Assembly (NCBI GenBank): GCA_976226885.1
Contig: OZ320318.1
Coordinates: 68,572,001 to 68,636,000, forward strand
Reading direction: 5' to 3'
DNA: 64,000 nt
From: Iphione sp. A-MEVVRFRX5
Taxonomy: Eukaryota
The notes under the pieces are model-generated. The model was not told where the DNA came from. It was given only the letters and a program-made list of their open reading frames with translations, and did no database searches. The position numbers and the translations under genes are program-made. This document shows positions 20,365 to 60,454 of the stretch, in pieces (positions within the stretch are counted from its first letter, which is position 1; the number at the start of each line of letters is the position of its first letter).

Positions 20365-20540
20365 GTTTTTGTTGAAAGAGGGACTTCAGCGGAAATTTTA
20401 CAGCGTTTTGTTAAAAATTGGCCATATCAGTGGAAAATTTGTCGTTTTTTGTTGAAAGAGGGACATATCAGTGGAAATTTGAGGCTTTTTGTTAAAAGTG
20501 GGCCATATTGGTGGAAAATTCGTGGCTTTTTAGGCAAATG
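20365..20540. repeat. A/T-tract minisatellite, about 40-bp unit
   Basis: GTT(G/A)AAA.. starts at 20371, 20410, 20451, 20491. Confidence 0.75.
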
Positions 20541-21689: not shown

Positions 21690-21865
21690 GACAACTGGCA
21701 AATCTGAGGCGAATTTGTCTGAAAATCTACAAAACTCAGCCAAATTCATCCAAAAATCAGCAGAAATGAGCCAAATTCGTCCCAAAAATTGGCATAAATG
21801 AGCCAAATCCATTCAAAAATGGGCAAAAATGAGCCAAATTCATCTGAAAATTGGTCAGATTTCAG
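21690..21865. repeat. A-tract minisatellite, 31-32-bp unit
   Basis: T(C/G)AGCCAAAT starts at 21736, 21767, 21799, 21830. Confidence 0.8.
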
Positions 21866-25614: not shown

Positions 25615-25915
25615 CATCATTCACCAGTGTTTATACTTTTCAAGTAAAATTTGCCATTTTTTATACTTTTTGCCAGTCAAATTCACCATTTTCTATACTT
25701 TTTGAGGTGATATTCACCAGTTTTTATATTTTCTCCAGTGACATTCACCAGTTTTTATACTTTTTCCAGTGACATTTACCAGGTTTTATACTTTTTCCAG
25801 TGACATTCACCAGTTTTTATACTGTTTTCCAGTAACATTTACCAGTTTTTATATTTTTTCCAGTGATATTCACCAGTTTTGATACTTTTCCAGTAACATT
25901 TACCAGCTTTTATAC
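25615..25915. repeat. Minisatellite, about 31-bp unit (TTCACCAGTTTTTATACTTTTTCCAGTGACA), about 10 copies
   Basis: T(C/T)ACCA recurs at roughly 31-bp spacing. Confidence 0.9.
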
Positions 25916-45489: not shown

Positions 45490-45801
45490 TGTAACGTCCG
45501 CTCCGCAAGTAAGACATGACTCCAGTTAAGATAAAGAGGTTTATTCGGTAAGAACAATATAGGCATAAGCAGTGAGCACCAACAGTGAGCACCAAAGGTA
45601 ATCTGAACTGCCCGGGTGGGCCAACTCCCTTATATACCCACCCCCAGTCTCCTCAGCATCCGGGTACCGGACCCCTCATACTCCGCAGCACCCCTTCGAG
45701 TGCCGCACGGGGGCGTGCCGCTGCACCCCACCAGTCCAGTCCACTGTGCCGCAGCACCCCATCGCGTGCCGCGGTGCCGCAGCCACGCAGTGGCTCCAAC
45801 A
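45490..45801 (-). repeat. 3' LTR (312 bp)
   Basis: Direct repeat of 55536-55847, immediately preceded on the element strand by the PPT. Confidence 0.97.
45540..45545 (-). terminator. LTR polyadenylation signal (copy in 5' LTR at 55586-55591)
   Basis: AATAAA on the element strand near the U5 end of each LTR. Confidence 0.7.
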
Positions 45802-45814
45802 TTGCCCTCCCCTT
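45802..45814 (-). promoter_or_regulatory. Polypurine tract
   Basis: Minus strand AAGGGGAGGGCAA directly 5' of the 3' LTR. Confidence 0.85.
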
Positions 45815-45992: not shown

Positions 45993-46589
45993 TCACAGGT
46001 AAACCGTCCATGACTCGCGGATGTGGACCTCCACGTTGCCCCCGGCGGTGGGCTCTTCTCGCCACGTGGACAGAAGCCGCACTGGACGGCCCCGCGTTAG
46101 CACCGTCCCGTAGTTGGCGTACCACGTGGCTAGCTCGCTGCCCGGGACCAGCACCCCAAGTCGTCGGAATGTGACGGTCTGCCGGAGGACGACCTTCACC
46201 TGCCCGGCGGTAAGCACCTGCACATCCAAAGCCGAGGAGTTGGAAATGACCATCCACCCGGGTGGTAGGGTGGATTCTGGTGACACCAAGCGTGATGCCG
46301 CCCAGATGTACACGGCGGCCGGGACCTCTTCCTCCGCTCCCGACGAGCCTGACACGTCTTGTAGGGGTGCTCCCGTCCCAGGGGTTGGCCGGGCCGACCA
46401 AGGTACGCTGGGAGGAGCGGGCGGGCCCGAGGGGAGATGTGGTCGCGTTCCCCACCCCCCGGCCCCGGGAGCGCCGGTGGCCCCAGCACCAGGGAGGGGC
46501 CCGAGGGGGGGCGTGCCCCGCGGCCAGGGCCCGGTGTCGGGCCGCGGGGACGCCCTCCTGGCGATGCTGCTGTTGTTGGATCCTCCCAA
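45993..46589 (-). CDS. Orphan ORF near the 3' LTR: Pro/Gly-rich N-part plus a roughly 110-aa globular-looking C-terminal domain, function unknown
   Basis: From 46334 the translation (EEVPAAVYIWAASRL...GWMVISN...VKVVLRQTVTFRRLGVLVPG...WYANYG...VEVHIRESWTVYL) is rich in V/W/Y/I, unlike the GC-shadow ORFs around it. There is no upstream in-frame ATG. Confidence 0.55.
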   Translation of the reverse strand: MGGSNNSSIARRASPRPDTGPWPRGTPPLGPLPGAGATGAPGAGGWGTRPHLPSGPPAPPSVPWSARPTPGTGAPLQDVSGSSGAEEEVPAAVYIWAASRLVSPESTLPPGWMVISNSSALDVQVLTAGQVKVVLRQTVTFRRLGVLVPGSELATWYANYGTVLTRGRPVRLLSTWREEPTAGGNVEVHIRESWTVYL

Positions 46590-47005
46590 GGTCTGACAGG
46601 GGCCACTCCGCGGGGGCTCGCTCTTCCCTCGCCTCCTGAGGTTCCCGGGGTGGATGTGAAAGGGGGCCCCCGTCCGCGGCCCCTCGTGGTTTCTCCAGCC
46701 ATCACAGGCACGCCGGCCCCGCCTTGCTTCTGTCGGGGTCCTTCGGCCGAGTTATCCCCGGTACTGGGGACATGCCTTGGCCTCGAGTCCGCCCTGCGGA
46801 CCAGCGCCCTCTCCCTCGCGAGGGCGGCGGCACCAGCTGGAGATGAAGTGGAGGAGCCCGATGCACCCCCTCCGCCGGCCCCCTCGGCTCTCTAGGCCGC
46901 TCTGGGCTCGCCGTCTCCTCGGTAGCGTCTTCTTGTCGACTTCCAGTCGGTACTTCCTCGGGGGTCGTGTCTGTGATTGGGCTGGCGGCGGGGCTGGTGG
47001 CTGGC

Positions 47006-50000
47006 TCAACCCCCTCTGTTGTGGCCACCTCGTCTCCTGTCGGCCCACTGGGCTCGTGTGTCCGCCCTGGGCCCGACGTCACCTCTTCGCCTCTCCGCCC
47101 CAGGGTGGTTGGAATGTTCTGCTGGCTCTCCGCTGGTGCCTCTACGGTGATCAGGGCTCGCGGCTGAACTGGCCGTGGGGTCGGGAGTCAGGCCGGCCCC
47201 CTCGGTGGCAGTAAGGTTGGAAATCACGCCGCCACCCGGGCTCTTCTCCGTCTCCGCCTTCTTCTGCGTCACGGACGTTGGGACATCTTCCTGCTGCGGA
47301 CTCTCCGGAGGTCTTGCCGCGATTCCCACTGTGTCTGCGGCGTTGGCCCCCAGAGGCACCCTCGGTTCCGTGGGCATGGTTGGCTGGGGACCCTTGGGAT
47401 CGGTGTCTGGCGCGGGTGAGCTGTGCGGGCGCAGGGCCGTGCCGTCGGGGGGGGGCTCCGGCTCCTCCTCGGAGGATTCCTCCTCGAAGAGGGTCGCCAG
47501 CTCCTGGTCCTCCTCACCGTCATCCCCGGGGGCCTGCCCCTCACTCGAGGACCCGTGTGTCACGGTCGGGCCTGTGGTCAAGGGCTCCCCGGCTGGGTCA
47601 GCCTCCGCGGCCCCTCCCAATCTCGGCTTCTTGGCTGGTGACGGCGTGATGGACCCGGGCGGTGTTACAAGGTCCACCACGTCTCCCTCCACCGGCCGTT
47701 CCCAACCTACGCCTAGGCGTTCGTCCAGCCGACGTTCGTCTTCTTCCCATGATGGCGCTCCAATTGGGGTCCCTGGCCTGGGCTCTCTGCGGCGGTCGGG
47801 GGCACCCCTGCCCATGCCAGGGAGGCGACATGGGGGTGACAACCCGACAGACCGGGCCGTGGGGGAGGCCCGGAAGGTCGCTCGCACTCCCACCTGGCGA
47901 GTCCCCGCCGCACTGGAAAGTCCGGACAATCCCTCGCCCCTCGGCTCCACGGTCGTTACCCGGGGCAGGGTCACCTGCAGTTGCGGGGGAGGCTCGTCAG
48001 CCGACGTCTGGCTAGCTGAATCCAGGAACAGTCTGCGTCCCTTGTAGTGCGACGCCCCGGCAGGCAGGTCTATGTTGTCGGGCGTGGCTACTTCTGGCCG
48101 CGGTGGGGGAGCGTCCCGTCCTTCTTTTTCCTGGGAAGAGGGGCGGTCCGGTCTCGCATACGTGCCAGTGGCCAAACGCTGGTCCAGGCGGGGCGGGGGT
48201 CCCGATCCCCCACTGCCCTGACTGTCTCCCGTCGCGGCTCCCGTTGAGCCAGTGTACTGGCCTAGGGCCTCCTGGGGCGAGGGCTCGGCCGTGGAAGGGG
48301 TGCTGCCCTCACCCGCCCCGTCGGGGGTCCCTGTGCTGCGATCCGATGTCTGACCGGAGACGGGGGACCCCCCTCCCTCGCTGTCTGGCGGGATATCGGG
48401 CATGGCCGACGCTGGAGGCCGGGGGGCGCGATGGTCAGGCCCCTCCTCGCGAAGGACGCTGGCGGCCCATTCCTTCACCAAGCGCCGCGCCTCGTCTGTG
48501 GAAGAGTCCCGGCCCGAGCTGCTACTAGGCGGGGGACCCGGTGGGGTCTGCGGTCCTTGGTGTGGGGCATCCACTGAGCGGCCCGTCCCTCGTCCCTCCG
48601 GAGCAACAGTGGAACCCTCGGCGCCAGGAGGGCGCGGCGGTGCCCCCTTATCCGGTTCCGGTGCCCTTGTGGTCGCGGGCGGTGGGGGGGGTCCGGCGCA
48701 ACTGCTCCCACTCTGATCGGCGTCCCCGGTCATGGTCTCCTCCCCACCCAGGGGGCCCGACGACACCGTCCGGGATACCACCCCCGGCGCCCGGGCAGAC
48801 GGCAGGGCACTCTCCTCCAACGAACTGGGAGGGGGATCCCTCCGTTGACGGGTGGACGCTCCCCGTCGCCGTCGGGCCTTCCGTGTCCCCCCGATTGCCT
48901 GGGGTCCCGACGGGGTCGACGTGCCAGTAGACGTCGACAGCTGCGCTGGCGGTGGCTCCGCCGGGTCCTCTGGCTGCCCGGCCGATGGACCGGCTTCGGG
49001 CTCTTGCTGCTGCTGGGTTGCAGCCCCTGGGATGGCCGCAGGCGGTCCCTCTGCTCGGTTGTCGCTACCTTCTTCCGGTGTAGCGGAGCGCCCTCTTTTT
49101 TTACTGCCTCGCTTGGAGGCCCCTCTCTGCGTCGAGAGTCGGCCCACCGCCCTGCGCACTTCTTTCTCCCGGCTCTTCTTTTCCCGGGCCCGGGCTCGCT
49201 GCAGCATCTCCACCTTATCGGCCGGGCAGAGCCGCGGCTCCCCGTAGGTGGGGTTGAGACCCCAGAACCGCAGGTACTGGAGGTCCACCGTCAGGGCCCA
49301 ATCGTTGGGTTCGTGGACCCCGTTCAGGTGTCGCTTCCAGTCGGTGCGCCGGTGGAAGGCTTGCTGCTCGCACTCGGGGTCGGGGCACAACCAGCCCAAT
49401 CCCTCAGGCGCGTGCACGTCTTTCAGGTGGCGGCGCAGGTTGGATGGTTGTGCGAACGTGGACGCACAGCGGGAGCAGCGGTGACGGCGCTCCTCCGGGG
49501 CACCTGGTTCCTCCTCGCCAGAGGACCCCGAGTCGTTGCTCTCAGCGTCGGGTGGGGGGACGTCCTCGGGTACGTCAGCCATGTCGTCGATGCGGCGATG
49601 CGGCACTGGTGGGGTGCAGTTCGCAGGTGGCGCACGGCCGCTCGGTGACGGGACAGCGAGGGCCGCAGCAGCACTGCGGGTCTGGACTGGCCTCGGGTGG
49701 GCAAGGTCCGCCTCTGCGGCGCCGCGGGTCTCTTCGCGTGGACGGCTGGTTGCGGTACTGCGGCGATCTTCTCGTTGTTGGTCGTCGCCGGGTAGCGCCG
49801 CGGCGGCGCCCTGGCACCCGGGCTGCGGCGCTGCGTCTGCTAGATCGCCGCACAGCAGCAGGGGCGCGTCGACTCCACTGGGGCGTGCGAGCCTGCGGCC
49901 ACTACGTCGGAGGGGGATGGTGCGGCTACAGTCCACCCCCGCGCGGCATGCCAGTCGAGCTGCGGAAGAAAGGTACCCATGAGAGTAACGGTTCCAGGTA

Positions 50001-53000
50001 GTTCCCTCCGCAGCGGTGACAGGTTTACCACACATTTCATCGAAAAACAAGGGTGCATCACGACCTTCGCCGCTCACCCAGCGCGGCTTTCTCCCGTTAC
50101 CCCGGTTATCGCCCATGTGTGCGGCTACCAACGGTAGGTTCCTCACCTCGTGCTGCCGCGGCGAATCCCTCGTCGAAGTTAGACGTTGAGCGGCAGCGGC
50201 TTCTCTTCTGTCGCCGCAGCCCCGGGCCGATGTTCTCTGGTCAGTGGGCGTAGGTGCGTTCGGTCGGCGCTCGACACGTGTTGCGTGGATCACGACGCTG
50301 TAGATCGTGTGGTGTCGCTCGGGTGCAACTTCCTGCGGCTCCCCTGGCGCCGCCTGGAGACTAGCGGTCGAATCACGCGGTATTGCGGTTAGCGGGGTGG
50401 GGCCCAGCGCGCTGCCTCTTATACGCTGAGATGCGGCTGCGGCGCCCTCTATCGGCATGGCGTAACCGTGCGGCCTCGCGGCTTCCTCCCGGGCCCGCTG
50501 CACCTCGTCCTGTGCCGCTGCGGCCTCCTGAACGCCGCACGTTACTTGGGGGTCGAGATGGGCGATCTTCAGGCGATCTGCATGAACTACTCTCTGCCGA
50601 TGTCCACGACTGACTCGGTACACCACTTCGGACAACGCCTTCTCCACGGTCCAGGGCCCCTCCCACCAACTCTGCAACTTCGGGGAGATCCCCTTCTTGC
50701 GGGCCGGGGTGAAAAGCCAGACTCGGTCGCCTTCGGCGTACCGTTGGTGCCTCACCCCTCGGTTGTACCAGTCCTTCTGCTGTGCTGCCACACGACTCAG
50801 CTTCTCTGCTACTTTCTCATGCGCCCGGCGGACCTCTTCCGCTATCCGGCTCGCGTACTCCCCACGATCCACCAGGGGTGGGGCCGGGCCACCATAGCGC
50901 AGCTCCACCGGCAGCGTCACCTCTCGGTGCAACAATGTCTGGTTCGGTGATTCCCCCGTGGTGTTGTGGGGGGTGGCCCGGTAGGCGGCCATCACGAACG
51001 GCAGGGCTTGGTCCCAGTCCTTCCGGCGCTCCTCGGCTAGCGTGCCCAGCATGTTCCCCAACGTGCGATTAAATCGCTCGACTACCCCATCACTCTGGGG
51101 GTGGTAGGGGGTGGTTCGGGATTTCTCTATCCCGAGGAGTCGTAGTACTTCCACGAACAGCGCCGCCTCAAAATTACGGCCCTGGTCCGAATGGAGTACC
51201 CGTGGGGGGCCGAAACGGCAGACCACTTCCCTAACGATGATGTCTGCTGTGGCCGCCGCGGTGGCCTCCTCAAGAGGGAACGCCTCCGTCCACTTTGAGA
51301 AGTGGTCGGCCACTACCAGGATGTACCTGTTTCCCCTCTCTGTCACAGGAAGCGGCCCCAAGATGTCTGCCGCCAGCACTTCCCACGGCTCCGACACGGG
51401 GCGTCCTTGCAGGTGGGCCCGGTGGCGCCTCCCCGGCCCTTTCCTTTGTTGGCATGCCTGACAGCACTGGGACCAGCGTGCAACGTCGCGCGACATCCCA
51501 GGCCAAAACCAGTGCCGGCGCAGCGCTGCTCCAGTCTTCTCTGGACCAAGGTGGCCACCCACCGGGCCTGCGTGGGTCTCCTGCCAGAGGCTCTTCTGTA
51601 TGGCCCGGGGGACGTAGGTCTGAGGGAGCCTCTGCCGGTCCTCCTCTTCCCAAAGGCGCACCAGTGCTCCCGATCGGAGCTCGAGTCTCGGGCCTTCCGC
51701 TCTGAGCTGTCTTTCTTCCCAGGTCAATCCAGCCCGCAGCCCAGGGAGGGGCTCCCCTTCCTCCAGCGCTTGGATGAGCTCGCCTGTTGCCGGTTCCATC
51801 CTCTGCATCTGGCACACATCTGGACCACCCTCCACTCCGGCGATGCCCACCGCCGCCGCACTCTCGGACCCCAGGTCTCGCCGGCCGCATTGCTTGCATT
51901 CTTGCCGTGATAGTCCGTCTGCGTTACCATGGCGTTTCCCTGGCCGGTGCGTGATCCGGAGGTCATGACAGAAGACCTCCTCTAGCCACCTGGCCAGCTG
52001 ACCCTGTGGCTCGTGGAAGTTGCACAGCCAGCGCAAGGAATCGTGGTCGGTGCGGATGTCAATGGCCCGGCCCCCCACATAGCATCTAAACTTCCGGAGG
52101 GCGAACACCACCGCCAAGAGTTCCTTCCTCGTAACGCAATAGTTCCGTTCGGGGCGGGTCAGTGTGCGGCTGGCGTAGGCCAGCACCCGCTCACGCCCTT
52201 CCTGTACTTGAGACAACACCGCACCGATGCCAGTGTCGGAAGCATCGGTGTCCAGGAGCAGCTGCCCCACGGGTGTCGGATAACCCAGGATGGGGGTAAT
52301 GGACAGTCGGGCCTTCAGCTGTTCGAAGGCTTCTTGACAGGCCGGGGACCACTCAAACTCCTGCTCTGCTCCAGCCAGGGCATGCAGGGGTGCCGCTAGG
52401 GTGGCAAACCCTTCCACAAAGCTGCGGTAGTACGAGCAGAGTCCTAGAAAGCTTCGAAGTTCTGCTGCACACCGAGGGCGGGGCCATCGCGAGGCGGCCC
52501 TGATCTTCTCTGGGTCGACCCCCACTCCTTCCGCCGAGACCCGATGGCCCAGGTATGCCACTTCTCGCTGGAATAGTTGACACTTGGACGCTTTGACGCG
52601 GAGTCCGGCCTCAATCAGCCTCTGGAATACCGCGCCGAGTCGGGTGCACATCTCCTCCACCGAGCGGCCCAGGACGATCACATCGTCGAGGTACACTAAA
52701 CACTCGGTGCCCACGAGGCCCCGCAGTACGGACTCCATAAGCCGCTCAAAGGTGGAGGGCGTGTTGCAGAGGCCGAACGGCATTACCCGGAACTGGTAAA
52801 GGCCGTTCGGGGTGCACACCGCCGTCTTTTCTGCGTCCGCCGGATCCATCTCGACCTGCCAGTAACCGCTGGCCAGGTCGATCGCCGAAAAATACTGGCT
52901 ACCCTGCAGAGCATCGAGGGTGTCGTCTATCCGGGGGAGGGGGAACGCGTCCTTCTTAGTGATGGCGTTGAGTTTGCGATAGTCGATGCAGAACCGTAGC

Positions 53001-54226
53001 CCCCCATCCTTCTTTTGTACGAGCACCAGCGGAGATGCCCATGGACTTGTGGAGGGCTCCAGCACCCCCTTCTGCACCATCTTGTCTACCTCCGCGTGAA
53101 CTGCCTCCCTCTTGGGAGGGGGAAGGCGCCTTGCTCGTTGACGAATGGGTGGGTGACCCTGGGTGTCGATGCGATGTCGGACTTCCGGGGTACGCCCGAG
53201 CGGACCACTGGCTGTCTGGAAGACTTCGCGGTGGCACCGTAGCATGGCCGCTATCTGCTGCCGCTCCGGATCGGTGGTCTCTACCGGTAGTTGCCCTAGC
53301 AAGTACTCTACCGCTTGCTCTTGCTCTGCCTCCACCTGCTCCTGGGGAGCCTCGGGTGGTCCAAGCACCGCGGCGACCTGACGGAGCTCGGCCAGCCGGG
53401 TTCCCTCGAAGACTCGTGTCGCCTGGGAGCCGGGATTCCACACTGGAACCCACACCCTCCCCTCCTGGGGTCGTACCAGCGCGCGAGCCACTCGTAGTCC
53501 CGAGCGTGACTCAAACCTGGCGTCAGGCTCCGCTAACCCTTCCAAAGAGTCGACCCCTCCTTGACACGCCTTCGCCTGAACCCAGCCTATTCCTCCCGCA
53601 GGAATCTCTTGACTGCCGCTGGCTCGCACTGTGGCCGCCCATTCACGGTTGCCGGGCCAAACAGTGACCGTGGCCTCCCTCGTATCTACTGTTGCCGCCC
53701 ACCGATCCAGCCAGTCCAAGCCAAGTAGACCCGGTATCTCCATCTCTACCACGATGGCCACCACCTGTAGGGTGACCCCTGCGAACCGAACTTCGCAGTC
53801 CACCAGCCCCAATACTTGTAGGGCGCTGCCATCCACCCCGAAGACTCGTGCCCCCGCCGGGTCCAACAACACCCCCTGTAGTTCTCGGTAGGTCCGTGCC
53901 GAGAGGAGGGAAGCGGAGGCTCCTGTGTCCACCAGCCAGTCCACCACCTGTCCGCCGACTTCTCCCTCCAACAATACTCCCCGGCACCCCGTCCTCCTCC
54001 TTCCCTGCAGTACCCTCCTGGTCTCCCCCTCGACGGCGGCGACCATCGCCTCCAAGGGGGGTCCCAGGCCGGGTGGTACGGAATCGGACGCCGCCCGCCC
54101 TACTGAGCCGGGGCGGGCGGCTTCTCGTTTTCCGGCTGCGCTGGAGCAGCGTCGGCGGTGTTCTCGGCTGCCTTCCGTACCGGGCAGTCCCGCTTGAAGT
54201 GCCCGGGCTCCTTGCAGTAAAAGCAT
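47006..54226 (-). CDS. pol: pol polyprotein (PR, RT, RNase H, integrase) with a roughly 1180-aa C-terminal extension containing two C2H2 zinc fingers
   Basis: Protease LVDTGAS (D codon at 53929), RT YLDD (52682-52693), RNase H DTDASDTGIGAVL, integrase HHCC plus D,D-E core (DILGP, HSDQG, ERFNRTL), and IN C-terminus ...GPW...VHADRLK (about 50570). The frame stays open to 47006. Translation probably enters by frameshift at about 54130. Confidence 0.95.
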   Translation of the reverse strand: MLLLQGARALQAGLPGTEGSREHRRRCSSAAGKREAARPGSVGRAASDSVPPGLGPPLEAMVAAVEGETRRVLQGRRRTGCRGVLLEGEVGGQVVDWLVDTGASASLLSARTYRELQGVLLDPAGARVFGVDGSALQVLGLVDCEVRFAGVTLQVVAIVVEMEIPGLLGLDWLDRWAATVDTREATVTVWPGNREWAATVRASGSQEIPAGGIGWVQAKACQGGVDSLEGLAEPDARFESRSGLRVARALVRPQEGRVWVPVWNPGSQATRVFEGTRLAELRQVAAVLGPPEAPQEQVEAEQEQAVEYLLGQLPVETTDPERQQIAAMLRCHREVFQTASGPLGRTPEVRHRIDTQGHPPIRQRARRLPPPKREAVHAEVDKMVQKGVLEPSTSPWASPLVLVQKKDGGLRFCIDYRKLNAITKKDAFPLPRIDDTLDALQGSQYFSAIDLASGYWQVEMDPADAEKTAVCTPNGLYQFRVMPFGLCNTPSTFERLMESVLRGLVGTECLVYLDDVIVLGRSVEEMCTRLGAVFQRLIEAGLRVKASKCQLFQREVAYLGHRVSAEGVGVDPEKIRAASRWPRPRCAAELRSFLGLCSYYRSFVEGFATLAAPLHALAGAEQEFEWSPACQEAFEQLKARLSITPILGYPTPVGQLLLDTDASDTGIGAVLSQVQEGRERVLAYASRTLTRPERNYCVTRKELLAVVFALRKFRCYVGGRAIDIRTDHDSLRWLCNFHEPQGQLARWLEEVFCHDLRITHRPGKRHGNADGLSRQECKQCGRRDLGSESAAAVGIAGVEGGPDVCQMQRMEPATGELIQALEEGEPLPGLRAGLTWEERQLRAEGPRLELRSGALVRLWEEEDRQRLPQTYVPRAIQKSLWQETHAGPVGGHLGPEKTGAALRRHWFWPGMSRDVARWSQCCQACQQRKGPGRRHRAHLQGRPVSEPWEVLAADILGPLPVTERGNRYILVVADHFSKWTEAFPLEEATAAATADIIVREVVCRFGPPRVLHSDQGRNFEAALFVEVLRLLGIEKSRTTPYHPQSDGVVERFNRTLGNMLGTLAEERRKDWDQALPFVMAAYRATPHNTTGESPNQTLLHREVTLPVELRYGGPAPPLVDRGEYASRIAEEVRRAHEKVAEKLSRVAAQQKDWYNRGVRHQRYAEGDRVWLFTPARKKGISPKLQSWWEGPWTVEKALSEVVYRVSRGHRQRVVHADRLKIAHLDPQVTCGVQEAAAAQDEVQRAREEAARPHGYAMPIEGAAAASQRIRGSALGPTPLTAIPRDSTASLQAAPGEPQEVAPERHHTIYSVVIHATRVERRPNAPTPTDQRTSARGCGDRREAAAAQRLTSTRDSPRQHEVRNLPLVAAHMGDNRGNGRKPRWVSGEGRDAPLFFDEMCGKPVTAAEGTTWNRYSHGYLSSAARLACRAGVDCSRTIPLRRSGRRLARPSGVDAPLLLCGDLADAAPQPGCQGAAAALPGDDQQREDRRSTATSRPREETRGAAEADLAHPRPVQTRSAAAALAVPSPSGRAPPANCTPPVPHRRIDDMADVPEDVPPPDAESNDSGSSGEEEPGAPEERRHRCSRCASTFAQPSNLRRHLKDVHAPEGLGWLCPDPECEQQAFHRRTDWKRHLNGVHEPNDWALTVDLQYLRFWGLNPTYGEPRLCPADKVEMLQRARAREKKSREKEVRRAVGRLSTQRGASKRGSKKRGRSATPEEGSDNRAEGPPAAIPGAATQQQQEPEAGPSAGQPEDPAEPPPAQLSTSTGTSTPSGPQAIGGTRKARRRRGASTRQRRDPPPSSLEESALPSARAPGVVSRTVSSGPLGGEETMTGDADQSGSSCAGPPPPPATTRAPEPDKGAPPRPPGAEGSTVAPEGRGTGRSVDAPHQGPQTPPGPPPSSSSGRDSSTDEARRLVKEWAASVLREEGPDHRAPRPPASAMPDIPPDSEGGGSPVSGQTSDRSTGTPDGAGEGSTPSTAEPSPQEALGQYTGSTGAATGDSQGSGGSGPPPRLDQRLATGTYARPDRPSSQEKEGRDAPPPRPEVATPDNIDLPAGASHYKGRRLFLDSASQTSADEPPPQLQVTLPRVTTVEPRGEGLSGLSSAAGTRQVGVRATFRASPTARSVGLSPPCRLPGMGRGAPDRRREPRPGTPIGAPSWEEDERRLDERLGVGWERPVEGDVVDLVTPPGSITPSPAKKPRLGGAAEADPAGEPLTTGPTVTHGSSSEGQAPGDDGEEDQELATLFEEESSEEEPEPPPDGTALRPHSSPAPDTDPKGPQPTMPTEPRVPLGANAADTVGIAARPPESPQQEDVPTSVTQKKAETEKSPGGGVISNLTATEGAGLTPDPTASSAASPDHRRGTSGEPAEHSNHPGAERRRGDVGPRADTRAQWADRRRGGHNRGG
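49313..49477 (-). other. Tandem C2H2 zinc fingers within the pol extension
   Basis: CSRC-ASTFAQPSNLRR-H-LKDV-H (canonical C-x2-C-x12-H-x4-H with conserved F and L) and CPDPEC-EQQAFHRRTDWKR-H-LNGV-H. Confidence 0.85.
54090..54133 (-). promoter_or_regulatory. Putative -1 programmed ribosomal frameshift signal (gag to pol)
   Basis: G_GAA_AAC in the gag frame at 54133-54127, a 5-nt spacer, then a perfect 11-bp stem GCCGCCCGCCC/GGGCGGGCGGC with a 10-nt loop. pol is in the -1 frame. Confidence 0.75.
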
Positions 54227-55518
54227 CCTTCGTTGTTCGCGCGCTTCCCGCCTCGCCTAACGGGGGAAGCGGTTGTTGCGGGCTGCTCCAGTAGCTTGGA
54301 CAGGAGTTGCTCAATGCGCTCCAATCCGGTCGACGTCTTGGCGTCGTGGCTGGCCGCCGCCACCTCTTGAGATTCGGCCTGTGCCGCGTGGACACGCGTC
54401 GCCCCAGCCCCCGGGCTGCGCTCCTTCTCGGCGCGGTGGTACGACTCGGCCAAGAGCGCCTCCGAGATGGCTGCCTGAAAGGACCGGGCCTTAGCTTGCA
54501 CGACCCATCTCCGGCAACGCTCTTCGCGGAGAGCCGAGACGAAGGCATCCTTGCACATTCGATCCAACCAGGAGCCCTCGGCCTCCGGGTAGGCCTGCCG
54601 TACCAATCTTTCAACTTCCTCGGCCAGTTTCTGGACGTCCTCGTCCTTCTTCTGGCGACGCTGTTTTAACTCCTGCTCATAATACTGGGCTCGATCCTCC
54701 GACTGGAACCTCTGTCACAGGGTCTCGACAATAGTCGAGAACGCTCCCTCAGCGGATACATCCACATTGGCTGAGCGGAGGGCGGATTGTGCCGAGCCCC
54801 TGAGACACACGCTGAGTTGCAGCGCCTGTTCCGCTTCGTCCCATCGGTTGGCCCGGGCCACCAGGGAGAAGTGATGCAGGTATTCCGCAAGGGGGACTCC
54901 TCCACTGAAGGACTCCGGCTTAACATGGAACCGGCGTGTCGGGGGTACCGGAGGGGCAGGCCGGAGAGCGGACTGGATCTCATCCATCAGCCCCCGCATC
55001 AGCTGGACGGCGTTTCCTTGTCCGCCCCCGGCCAGGCTCGGGTTGGGCGGGGGAGGGCCAGCCGGCGGGGTGGCTGGCGGCGGGGGAGCCGGGGCAGCGG
55101 GGTCGCGAGGGTTCGCCGTCCCATCTGGCTGTCCTCCTACCCCGGTGGGGGCTCCGGGCGTGGTGTCGTCACTGCCCCTCCCACGGGGCGAGCCGGCCCC
55201 GCTGGGAACAGAAGAATCCTCACTGCTGCTGTGGCTCGACGAGTGGTCTTCGTCCGACAGTGCCGTGCCGCTGCGGCGCAAAGGGGTGCGGCGGCACGGT
55301 GGGGTGCTGCGGCGCAGTGGGGTGCTGCAGCACGGTGGGGTGCCGCGGCCCCGCGGCACGCGATGTGCCCCGAGCTGCACCTCCTCGTCCTCAGTGCTGG
55401 AGTCTTCCCTCGTGGGGGACCACTCGTGGGGAACGGTACATCCCACGTGTCCCCCCCGGGGGGCAGGGCGTGTCCCCCTTCCTCGCGGTTGCGGTGCCCC
55501 GGTGGGTGATTCCTCCAT
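54100..55518 (-). pseudogene. gag: gag (about 472 codons) interrupted by one in-frame TGA at 54715-54717
   Basis: ATG at 55518. Capsid-like segment KPESFSG...EYLHHFSLVARANRW...LSVCLRGSA; the same frame continues past the TGA (ETL*QRFQSEDRAQYY...) to the zinc knuckle CFYCKEPGHFKRDC and TAG at 54100-54102. Confidence 0.9.
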
Positions 55519-55534
55519 CCCACCGCTGCCACCA
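55517..55534 (-). promoter_or_regulatory. Primer-binding site, tRNA-Leu type
   Basis: Minus strand TGGTGGCAGCGGTGGGAT starts 1 nt after the 5' LTR. It is complementary to the ...AUCCCACCGCUGCCACCA 3' end of metazoan tRNA-Leu (AAG/TAG type), recalled from known tRNA sequences. Confidence 0.85.
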
Positions 55535-55535
55535 A

Positions 55536-55847
55536 TGTAACGTCCGCTCCGCAAGTAAGACATGACTCCAGTTAAGATAAAGAGGTTTATTCGGTAAGAA
55601 CAATATAGGCATAAGCAGTGAGCACCAACAGTGAGCACCAAAGGTAATCTGAACTGCCCGGGTGGGCCAACTCCCTTATATACCCACCCCCAGTCTCCTC
55701 AGCATCCGGGTACCGGACCCCTCATACTCCGCAGCACCCCTTCGAGTGCCGCACGGGGGCGTGCCGCTGCACCCCACCAGTCCAGTTCACTGTGCCGCAG
55801 CACCCCATCGCGTGCCGCGGTGCCGCAGCCACGCAGTGGCTCCAACA
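55536..55847 (-). repeat. 5' LTR (312 bp)
   Basis: TGTAACG...CCAACA on +. Identical to 45490-45801 except one C/T difference (ccagtccactg vs ccagttcactg) by manual comparison. Confidence 0.97.
55676..55682 (-). promoter_or_regulatory. LTR TATA box (copy in 3' LTR at 45630-45636)
   Basis: TATATAA on the element strand, about 90 nt upstream of the LTR AATAAA, giving a U3-R-U5 layout. Confidence 0.7.
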
Positions 55848-58609: not shown

Positions 58610-60454
58610 TGAATATGTGTACATGGACGAGGTGTGAGGATGCCAAAAGGATCAAAAGGAAATTCCTAAATATGCAAGTAAGAAAGGCAATGCGCAAAGC
58701 ATGAAGGACGTAGGAGAGTGAGAAGTTAAAACATGCGGGGAACGAAGCCACTAGGATATGGCATGTGCTCAACGATGTTCTGGGACATGCACAGAGAGAG
58801 GTGGTCCTGCCCATGTGGAGTGCATGTGATCATACCAATGATGGATCACCCGCTGAAGACTTCAATGCTTACTTCATAGTGGAGGTGGAACGACTGGCGC
58901 CACAACCTGTTGCGAATGACTGGGTTCAAATGATGGGCATGCCTCGCATTGACGTTAAACCAACAATTTCAGAAGTGCTCAAACCCTATGTTGTCAAGCA
59001 GGGTTTGACCCAGGCTTCTGGTATCCTCAATGTCCTAACGGTAGTCCTCAAGCCATTACTACATCTCACGTTGGATTTCATTGCCATACTGTTCACACAG
59101 ATTTTTTGGAAGATCACTAGGGTAACCCTTGTCTTTAAGAAGGGGGACTAGAGCCAGCTTGGAAACTATCACCCTGTCTTGATCCTCCCCTTGCCTGGGA
59201 AGGTATTTGAGGTGTGGTATGTAGGTGACCTCATGCAACAGCTAGAAGAATGGAAGTTTTGGGGCAATGAACAGCATGGATTCCATCCAGGGCAGAGCAC
59301 GGAGACAGCAATCATCAATCTCGTGTGCAAGGTGCAAGAGGCACTCAATGCTGGACAATATTGCTGCCTCCTGGCTCTGGACCTGTGCAAGGCTTTTCAC
59401 CTTGTTCCATCAATTGGGGTATTCTCTTGCCTGGAGACTGCTGGTGCTAGTGCCTCTGGCCGAAGGCTCATATCGAGCTATTTTGAAGGTCACAAGCAGT
59501 TCGTAAGATGTAGAGGTATCGATTTGAACATATGTGATGTCAACCATGGGGTTTCACAGGGCTCGGTCTTTGGACCAAGCACCTTCTCCATTGTTATTGA
59601 TGAAGTGGTGAGTAGGTTTCCACCAGGCGCAGAACTCACTATGTATGGGGATGACCTTATGGTGATGACTTCTACACCTGACCTCCTAAGGCTTCGGGGG
59701 TCACTCAACTGGCAGCAGAACAGGTAGTGACCTGGTGCAGTGAGGCTGGATTGCTATTCAGTGTCAACAAATGTGCCCATATGGTACTGGGAAAAGCAGC
59801 AGATACCCCACTGGATATCAAGCTACAGGATGTGACACTCAAGGTGGTGTAGAAAATAAAGCTACTTGGCTGCATGATTGACTCACATCTAAAGTTTCAG
59901 CCACTGATCAATGACACTGAAGCCAAGATGTGGATGGCCTCATCAAAGAGAGTTGACTGGGGAGAGTCAAGACCCTGTTGCCCATAGGGATAAGGGTTAG
60001 ACTCTTCAAGGCACTGGTTATACCTCACCTCTACTACGCATCTGCACTGCTGTATGGGGTGTTCAAGGCAGATAAATGCAATCTGCAAGCACACCTAAAC
60101 CAGGGCCTTAGGGTGGCGGTTCTGATGAGTAAAAGGTTGTCTGCGAAGCAGTTAGCAGAGAAGCATGGCATTGGCAGGGTACAGGACATCATAGAGAGAA
60201 AAGCCATCGCTGCCATCCATCGTCAAGTGCACCTAAACTTGCTACCTCAAGATGTCCCAACAAGGACCAGGGTAGGCACCTCACACCGAGTGAATGTGTC
60301 TAGACCCAGGAGCTTGAAGTTCACTAGAAGCCTCGTGTACGGCACTGTAGCAGCTTGGAATTCCCTGCCTACATGCTTGAAGTCCCTCCAGAAGCCATCC
60401 AAAGCAGCCTGGGACGAGATAGCCAGAGAATGTCAACACCTAGACCTGGGTTGA
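58610..60454 (+). pseudogene. Decayed non-LTR retrotransposon (CR1/L2-group LINE) ORF2 reverse transcriptase, 5'-truncated
   Basis: KKGD*SQLGNYHPV..LPLPGKVFE, QHGFHPGQSTETA, LALDLCKAF, GVSQGSVFGP, YGDD, and C-terminal LFKALVIPHLYY...AWNSLP. Contains stops and frameshifts; the 5' boundary is approximate. Confidence 0.9.

Follow-up and report, generated by a model that had tools for sequence, protein, structure and literature searches.

Location and conservation of the C-terminal domain

The window examined here, a stretch of 64,000 nt from Iphione sp. A-MEVVRFRX5 (assembly GCA_976226885.1, contig OZ320318.1, positions 68,572,001-68,636,000), contains on its - strand a Gypsy long terminal repeat (LTR) retrotransposon (55847-45490). 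In this element gag with a CCHC knuckle (54100..55518) and a pol core of protease, reverse transcriptase (RT), RNase H and integrase (50566..54256), both identified with Pfam, are followed by two C2H2 zinc fingers (ZnF; 49213..49477), a long low-complexity linker (46365..49200) and a 113-aa C-terminal domain (CTD; 45996..46334) that ends at a stop codon (45995-45993). An earlier sequence-only reading of the window had described this domain as a V/W/Y/I-rich segment following Pro/Gly-rich sequence, which agrees with the present findings apart from the distance between its stop codon and the polypurine tract (PPT), given there as 180 nt and measured here as 178 nt.

Related loci used for counts, families and alignments were copies in the same genome. 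All 150 candidates scored in a search of this genome with the 113-aa domain matched the CTD (E down to 1e-69), and the 46 closest copies were at least 90% identical. Further groups of copies came from own-genome searches started with more distant members; nine family representatives (F1-F9) were chosen for long open frames, 24 rows were aligned over the domain, and 60 loci of 10 kb were fetched to read its upstream context. Purifying selection on the CTD, estimated as the ratio of nonsynonymous to synonymous rates (dN/dS), equaled that on RT in strength. Given this selection and the match of every scored candidate, the result is more than chance, and the CTD is a real, previously undescribed domain of a clade-wide Gypsy accessory protein. 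Of the checks suggested in the sequence-only reading, codon-level conservation among copies gave this purifying selection and structure prediction a predicted local distance difference test score (pLDDT) of 89. Conservation began 10 codons upstream of the start first noted, at an xQDxS (YEDIS) motif (46335..46364) with invariant D3 and S5 (24/24 rows). In a model of this motif plus the CTD, residues 1-9 had pLDDT values <50, i.e., the motif is predicted to be unfolded, and the CTD is predicted to form an alpha-beta-beta-alpha-beta-beta fold.

Continuity of the CTD with Pol

In the window copy, a single 2,416-aa frame runs from protease through RT, RNase H and integrase into the two C2H2 fingers and low-complexity sequence, with a stop at 47006, and the CTD ends a separate 252-aa stop-to-stop frame (46751-45993) that, as previously noted, has no ATG ahead of the domain. 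Seven of the 46 closest copies hold the CTD within open frames of 2,363-2,742 aa. Similarly, frames of 2,438-2,716 aa extend from protease through CTD in the F1-F9 representatives, and protease, RT, RNase H and integrase were all identified in the CTD frame of the full-length representatives scanned (9/9). The finger pair lay 1.2-4.5 kb upstream of the CTD in 56/60 loci and RT lay upstream in 54/60. These findings show that the CTD is the true C-terminus of the Pol-ZnF frame in intact siblings, which was one of two possibilities raised by the sequence-only reading. The missing ATG is explained by three frame breaks, near 47.15, 46.74 and 46.46 kb, at which the window copy differs from 29/29 siblings; these private breaks, together with a gag stop near 54.7 kb, mark this copy as young but broken. 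Apparent orphan open reading frames near PPTs can thus be frameshift artefacts of single copies. The earlier description of a cargo domain was correct as to the presence of a domain, but "cargo" is too strong a word for a part that is fixed in the clade.

The fingers, which were identified with Pfam and are predicted (pLDDT 89) to be followed by a conserved beta-hairpin/helix tail, are joined to the CTD by a linker with dN/dS of 0.16-0.36. This linker, in which the three private frame breaks of the window copy fall, contains an LDxRLGxxW motif (8/9 families) and then a hydrophobic-acidic stretch and a basic patch that we take to resemble a SUMO-interacting motif (SIM) and a nuclear localization signal (NLS), respectively. 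The spacer between integrase and fingers (269-587 aa; dN/dS 0.38-0.81) had no in-frame stops in 9/9 families compared with 6-21 stops in the other frames, and two spacer indels common to family-1 copies keep the frame. In F5 (L038/L039), the spacer reaches 587 aa by tandem repeats that also keep the frame.

A possible difference in history between pol and the downstream region was noted in one pair of loci. L085 and L088 (F8 and F9) are 100% identical in RT protein, with a synonymous distance (dS) of 0.27 for pol as opposed to about 1.6 for linker and CTD, and their CTDs are 78% identical. These values suggest an exchange of pol and accessory module between the two families.

Searches for relatives

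No credible match to the CTD was found in Pfam, in PDB sequence searches (in which PRDM9 and lipase rows had low significance and did not recur from one search to the other), among PHROGs and phages, or in word searches of 5.8 billion proteins (62-198 aa; proteins of 239-2,000 aa, with those >2,000 aa outside the range). Viral contigs (0/10 stretches) and metagenome contigs (0/153) likewise gave no CTD match, and the one match found with HMMER among 1.84 billion representatives, a bacterial repeat protein over 38 positions, was judged to be due to chance. A ZnF profile matched only four generic C2H2 proteins. PR/SET domains are recognized by conserved N-H/C and ELxxxY motifs and by the SET pseudoknot fold; assignment of the CTD to this class was rejected, the PRDM9 match (E=1.5) being gone with a profile and the matching N and Y varying between families. 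Foldseek, which had been suggested for this unrecognized domain, gave no match to the CTD model at E<=0.001 in PDB or BFVD, a result from which novelty of the fold does not follow; the best viral row was an uncharacterized Pithovirus protein with a template modeling (TM) score of 0.50. A homodimer prediction performed without an alignment (score 0.00, fold uncertain) speaks neither for nor against assembly. The accessible parts of the literature searched, with subscription papers, Repbase-type annotations and supplements outside this scope, contained no description of the CTD or of the element layout.

Predicted intron, start codon and internal promoter

Signals consistent with separate expression of the ZnF-linker-CTD module were noted upstream of the fingers. 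In the window copy these are a predicted 187-nt intron in the open pol frame (49960..50146; donor GAG/GTGAGG, acceptor CTTTCTTCCGCAG), an internal ATG in Kozak context as predicted start of the module (49580..49582) and a TATA-like box (TATAWR) of a candidate internal promoter (50416..50423). The corresponding Met lies 20-38 codons ahead of the fingers in 8/9 families (114 codons in F4), with a purine at -3 in 9/9 families and G+4 as well in 8/9, compared with 67/220 other in-frame ATGs. A polypyrimidine-YAG acceptor, in a phase common to all, precedes this ATG in each family (49960 in the window); ATGs number 2 in 1,911 nt downstream of these acceptors as opposed to 58 in 7,383 nt upstream. 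Downstream of its own acceptor, the window copy carries a single out-of-frame ATG that is private to it. In family 1, the acceptor 17-mer was identical in all 24 copies that cover it (of 25). Each family also has a phase-0 donor 169-442 nt ahead of the acceptor (50146 in the window), strong donor words occurring 18 times in 68,997 nt of the nine-family frames, and the presence of GCGATAA within 45 nt after the donor in 7/9 families indicates that donors are homologous between families. The predicted introns are 3n+1 in length in 9/9 families, so that in a spliced full-length RNA the pol frame would terminate 1-138 codons beyond the junction.

Evidence for an internal promoter varied between families. 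Thus, F1-F4 and the window carry TATAWR boxes 187-322 nt ahead of the donor, with only one such box in the rest of the frames (63,804 nt), whereas none was found near the donor in F5-F9. The recurrence of LTR hexamers in the spacer is mixed: it was seen in F3-F5 and F7, with 14 copies within 576 nt of the F4 spacer, and not in F6, F8 or F9. No shared donor was found in the LTR or the first 900 nt. F1-F5 retain a PRWxxGxGR motif inside the predicted intron although its codons differ and, on this account, the unspliced frame looks translated as well. Taken together, these sequence signals suggest that the ZnF protein probably has its own spliced RNA, in addition to a Pol fusion made from genomic RNA. 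Several points weigh against this interpretation: intron-less genomic copies were seen at 0/40 loci, the families are related (RT 82-100%), and the donors were picked after the fact.

The GCGATAA word, which 7/9 families have 24-42 nt into the predicted intron (about 50112-50104 in the window) with variants in F2 and F5, is immediately preceded in frame by ATG in F1-F5 and by CTG, TTG, GTG or ACG in F6-F9; a factor binds here, perhaps, or translation has an additional start. Two other loci, L118 (from 5547) and L119 (from 5313), resemble the element over its 3' part alone, from about the acceptor or the internal ATG to the 3' LTR, and the DNA upstream of this part matches neither the element nor nine other representatives.

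Comparison with known systems

Foamy virus Tas, Cer1 CERV, Oikopleura Tor and the chromoviruses are functional or layout analogues of this element, none with this CTD. In the available portions of the source, foamy viruses are described as having the accessory genes Tas and Bet close to the 3' LTR, transcripts both spliced and unspliced, an internal promoter and regulation of transcription by Tas (PMC7828637). The accessory region of the present element is likewise near the 3' LTR, with an internal promoter and spliced transcript that are here only predicted, but the element is a Gypsy without env, has C2H2 fingers and an orphan alpha/beta CTD, and carries its accessory frame continuous with pol. 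No sequence link between Tas and the element was found, and the likeness is one of analogy. CERV of C. elegans Cer1, so far as described in the text available, is nuclear, is made as spliced in-frame peptides, is needed for genomic RNA export and has an M domain with predicted rings (PMC10309623). It shares with the present protein the status of an LTR-retrotransposon accessory, nuclear location and splicing-based expression (both predicted here) and linker-joined folded domains. The helical H, Cys-loop M and G-protein-like domains of CERV and its leucine zipper common with Gag were not seen here, and the module of the present element lies after integrase. Tor elements, according to the same kind of partial source, are Gypsy elements that express a third gene, the membrane glycoprotein Env, from an internal promoter (PMC4402516), to which the candidate promoter of the present element is comparable, whereas the third-gene product here, i.e., ZnF-linker-CTD, lacks a hydrophobic segment. 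Chromoviruses also end the Pol frame with an extra folded domain, as far as the cited text goes (PMC12440569); no chromodomain match was seen here, and the CTD follows integrase by 1,200-1,500 aa, behind the fingers and predicted start signals of its own.

Possible functions of the CTD

The CTD is the conserved C-terminal domain, predicted to be folded, of a ZnF accessory protein that a Gypsy clade encodes in frame behind integrase. On balance, it is somewhat likely to serve there as a self-assembly or partner-binding module, the protein being a nuclear regulator for which the element probably has a spliced RNA of its own. Transcription would start within the integrase-ZnF spacer or upstream of it (four families have a TATA box), and the RNA would lose the 169-442-nt intron and initiate at the Kozak ATG, giving a protein of 870-1,200 aa with two C2H2 fingers, a disordered linker in which NLS- and SIM-like motifs lie, and the CTD. 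Unspliced genomic RNA would yield the same module fused to Pol, whereas in a spliced full-length RNA the frame would be shifted and Pol would terminate shortly beyond the junction. In the weakest step, the CTD would oligomerize through its four long beta-strands and, as a consequence, several finger pairs could engage words that are repeated in the LTR and the internal promoter, so that the element is switched on or shielded from silencing, in analogy to the action of Tas on the foamy virus LTR and internal promoter. That such a regulator, assembled or bound to a partner through the CTD, acts on these two regions is suggested tentatively. Most descriptions of animal Gypsy elements are of gag-pol, with env in some cases, whereas in nine families here about 3 kb encode an accessory protein other than an envelope; its CTD is kept under RT-level constraint, which implies a function that the element cannot lose. 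If the element makes its own regulator or export factor in this way, "complex retrovirus" logic would have a further, independent example among retrotransposons.

Two other roles draw on a nucleic-acid function, with either of which the seven conserved basic columns of the CTD (Lys/Arg in 18-23 of 24 rows) would fit. The unspliced Pol fusion might tether integration, fingers and CTD steering integrase to chosen DNA or chromatin in the manner of a chromodomain. Integrase and module share one frame across a spacer that is free of stops despite its varied length, the common indels keep this frame, a protein-level motif lies inside the predicted intron, and chromodomains C-terminal to integrase provide precedent in the portions of the sources available (PMC12440569, PMC13524379). 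Such tethering nevertheless seems unlikely as the explanation, for it would leave the splice, Kozak and TATA signals unneeded, the spacer dN/dS is 0.38-0.81 and the only bias seen among the 22 flanks read was for AT-rich 4-mers; it can, however, be combined with the spliced-regulator explanation. Rather improbable is an RNA-handling factor resembling CERV or Rev, in which the spliced product would bind intron-containing genomic RNA by CTD rings with a basic sheet face and aid export or packaging. An intron within the genomic RNA would create a need for such a factor, and the CERV peptides, so far as described, are a precedent (PMC10309623).

Phage tail-terminator (gpU) proteins are defined as a class by a hexameric ring. 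It is distinctly improbable, though conceivable, that the CTD is a eukaryotic version of this fold that assembles the ZnF protein in rings as part of a complex-retroelement switch within one frame, with an unspliced Pol-regulator fusion, removal of the 3n+1 intron freeing Pol and the internal promoter giving the regulator alone. The gpU fold (9mu2_D, 9m6x_M, 4acv, 3fz2; PMC11784142, as described in part of the source) is characterized by a four-strand antiparallel sheet and two helices, and the order of these elements was the point of comparison with the CTD prediction. Finally, a short spliced RNA entering at 46407 had been proposed to make the domain as a small separate protein. The pyrimidine-rich sequence on which this was based (46408..46420, CCGCTCCTCCCAG) does end at 46408 with a CAG that is kept in 28/29 siblings, but it is coding DNA (Pro-Ala-Pro-Pro-Ser), its 16-mer is identical in only 19/29 siblings, it is one of six comparable YAG sites on the - strand of the element and it has no counterpart in F2-F9, where the sequence is unrelated. 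It was therefore rejected as a conserved signal and is unneeded, since the private frame breaks account for the orphan frame and its missing ATG. Such a product is very improbable, and the spliced subgenomic RNA envisaged in the sequence-only reading is likely only in another form, i.e., from the acceptor at 49960, 3.5 kb upstream, for the whole ZnF protein.

Other features of the element and the window

The element has the features of a Ty3/Gypsy LTR retrotransposon, i.e., TG...CA LTRs, a target-site duplication, a primer-binding site, a PPT, a CCHC gag and the order protease-RT-RNase H-integrase. The 5' LTR (55536..55847; 312 nt, with TATA and AATAAA) and 3' LTR (45490..45801; 312 nt) differ by one mismatch and are flanked by a 4-bp ATAT target-site duplication. 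The primer-binding site (55517..55534), presumably of tRNA-Leu type, is identical in 9/10 5' ends read, F5 differing by one base, and the PPT is at 45802..45814. Gag frames of siblings are 462 and 466 aa. An env-carrying Gypsy of errantivirus or Tor type was ruled out by maximum 19-residue hydropathy values of 0.67-1.15 in nine families and the lack of a Pfam env family, and a chromovirus by the finding of a chromodomain in 0/10 frames and 0/24 domain rows (Pfam) and by the long-stranded alpha/beta sheet of the model.

The 22 flank 4-mers read at family-1 3' ends were AT-rich and often RTAY-like (ATAT 5, GTAT 3, CTAT 3). In all nine families, a conserved GT(C/T)ATGTCTT word, possibly a downstream poly(A) element, follows AATAAA in the U5 of LTRs that are otherwise divergent. 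Elsewhere in the window, tandem repeat arrays with 31-nt and about 41-nt units were noted in AT-rich host DNA (25637-25888, 21691-21847 and 20386-20507), and broken frames on the + strand (58714-60454) resemble what we take to be a non-LTR (LINE) reverse transcriptase.
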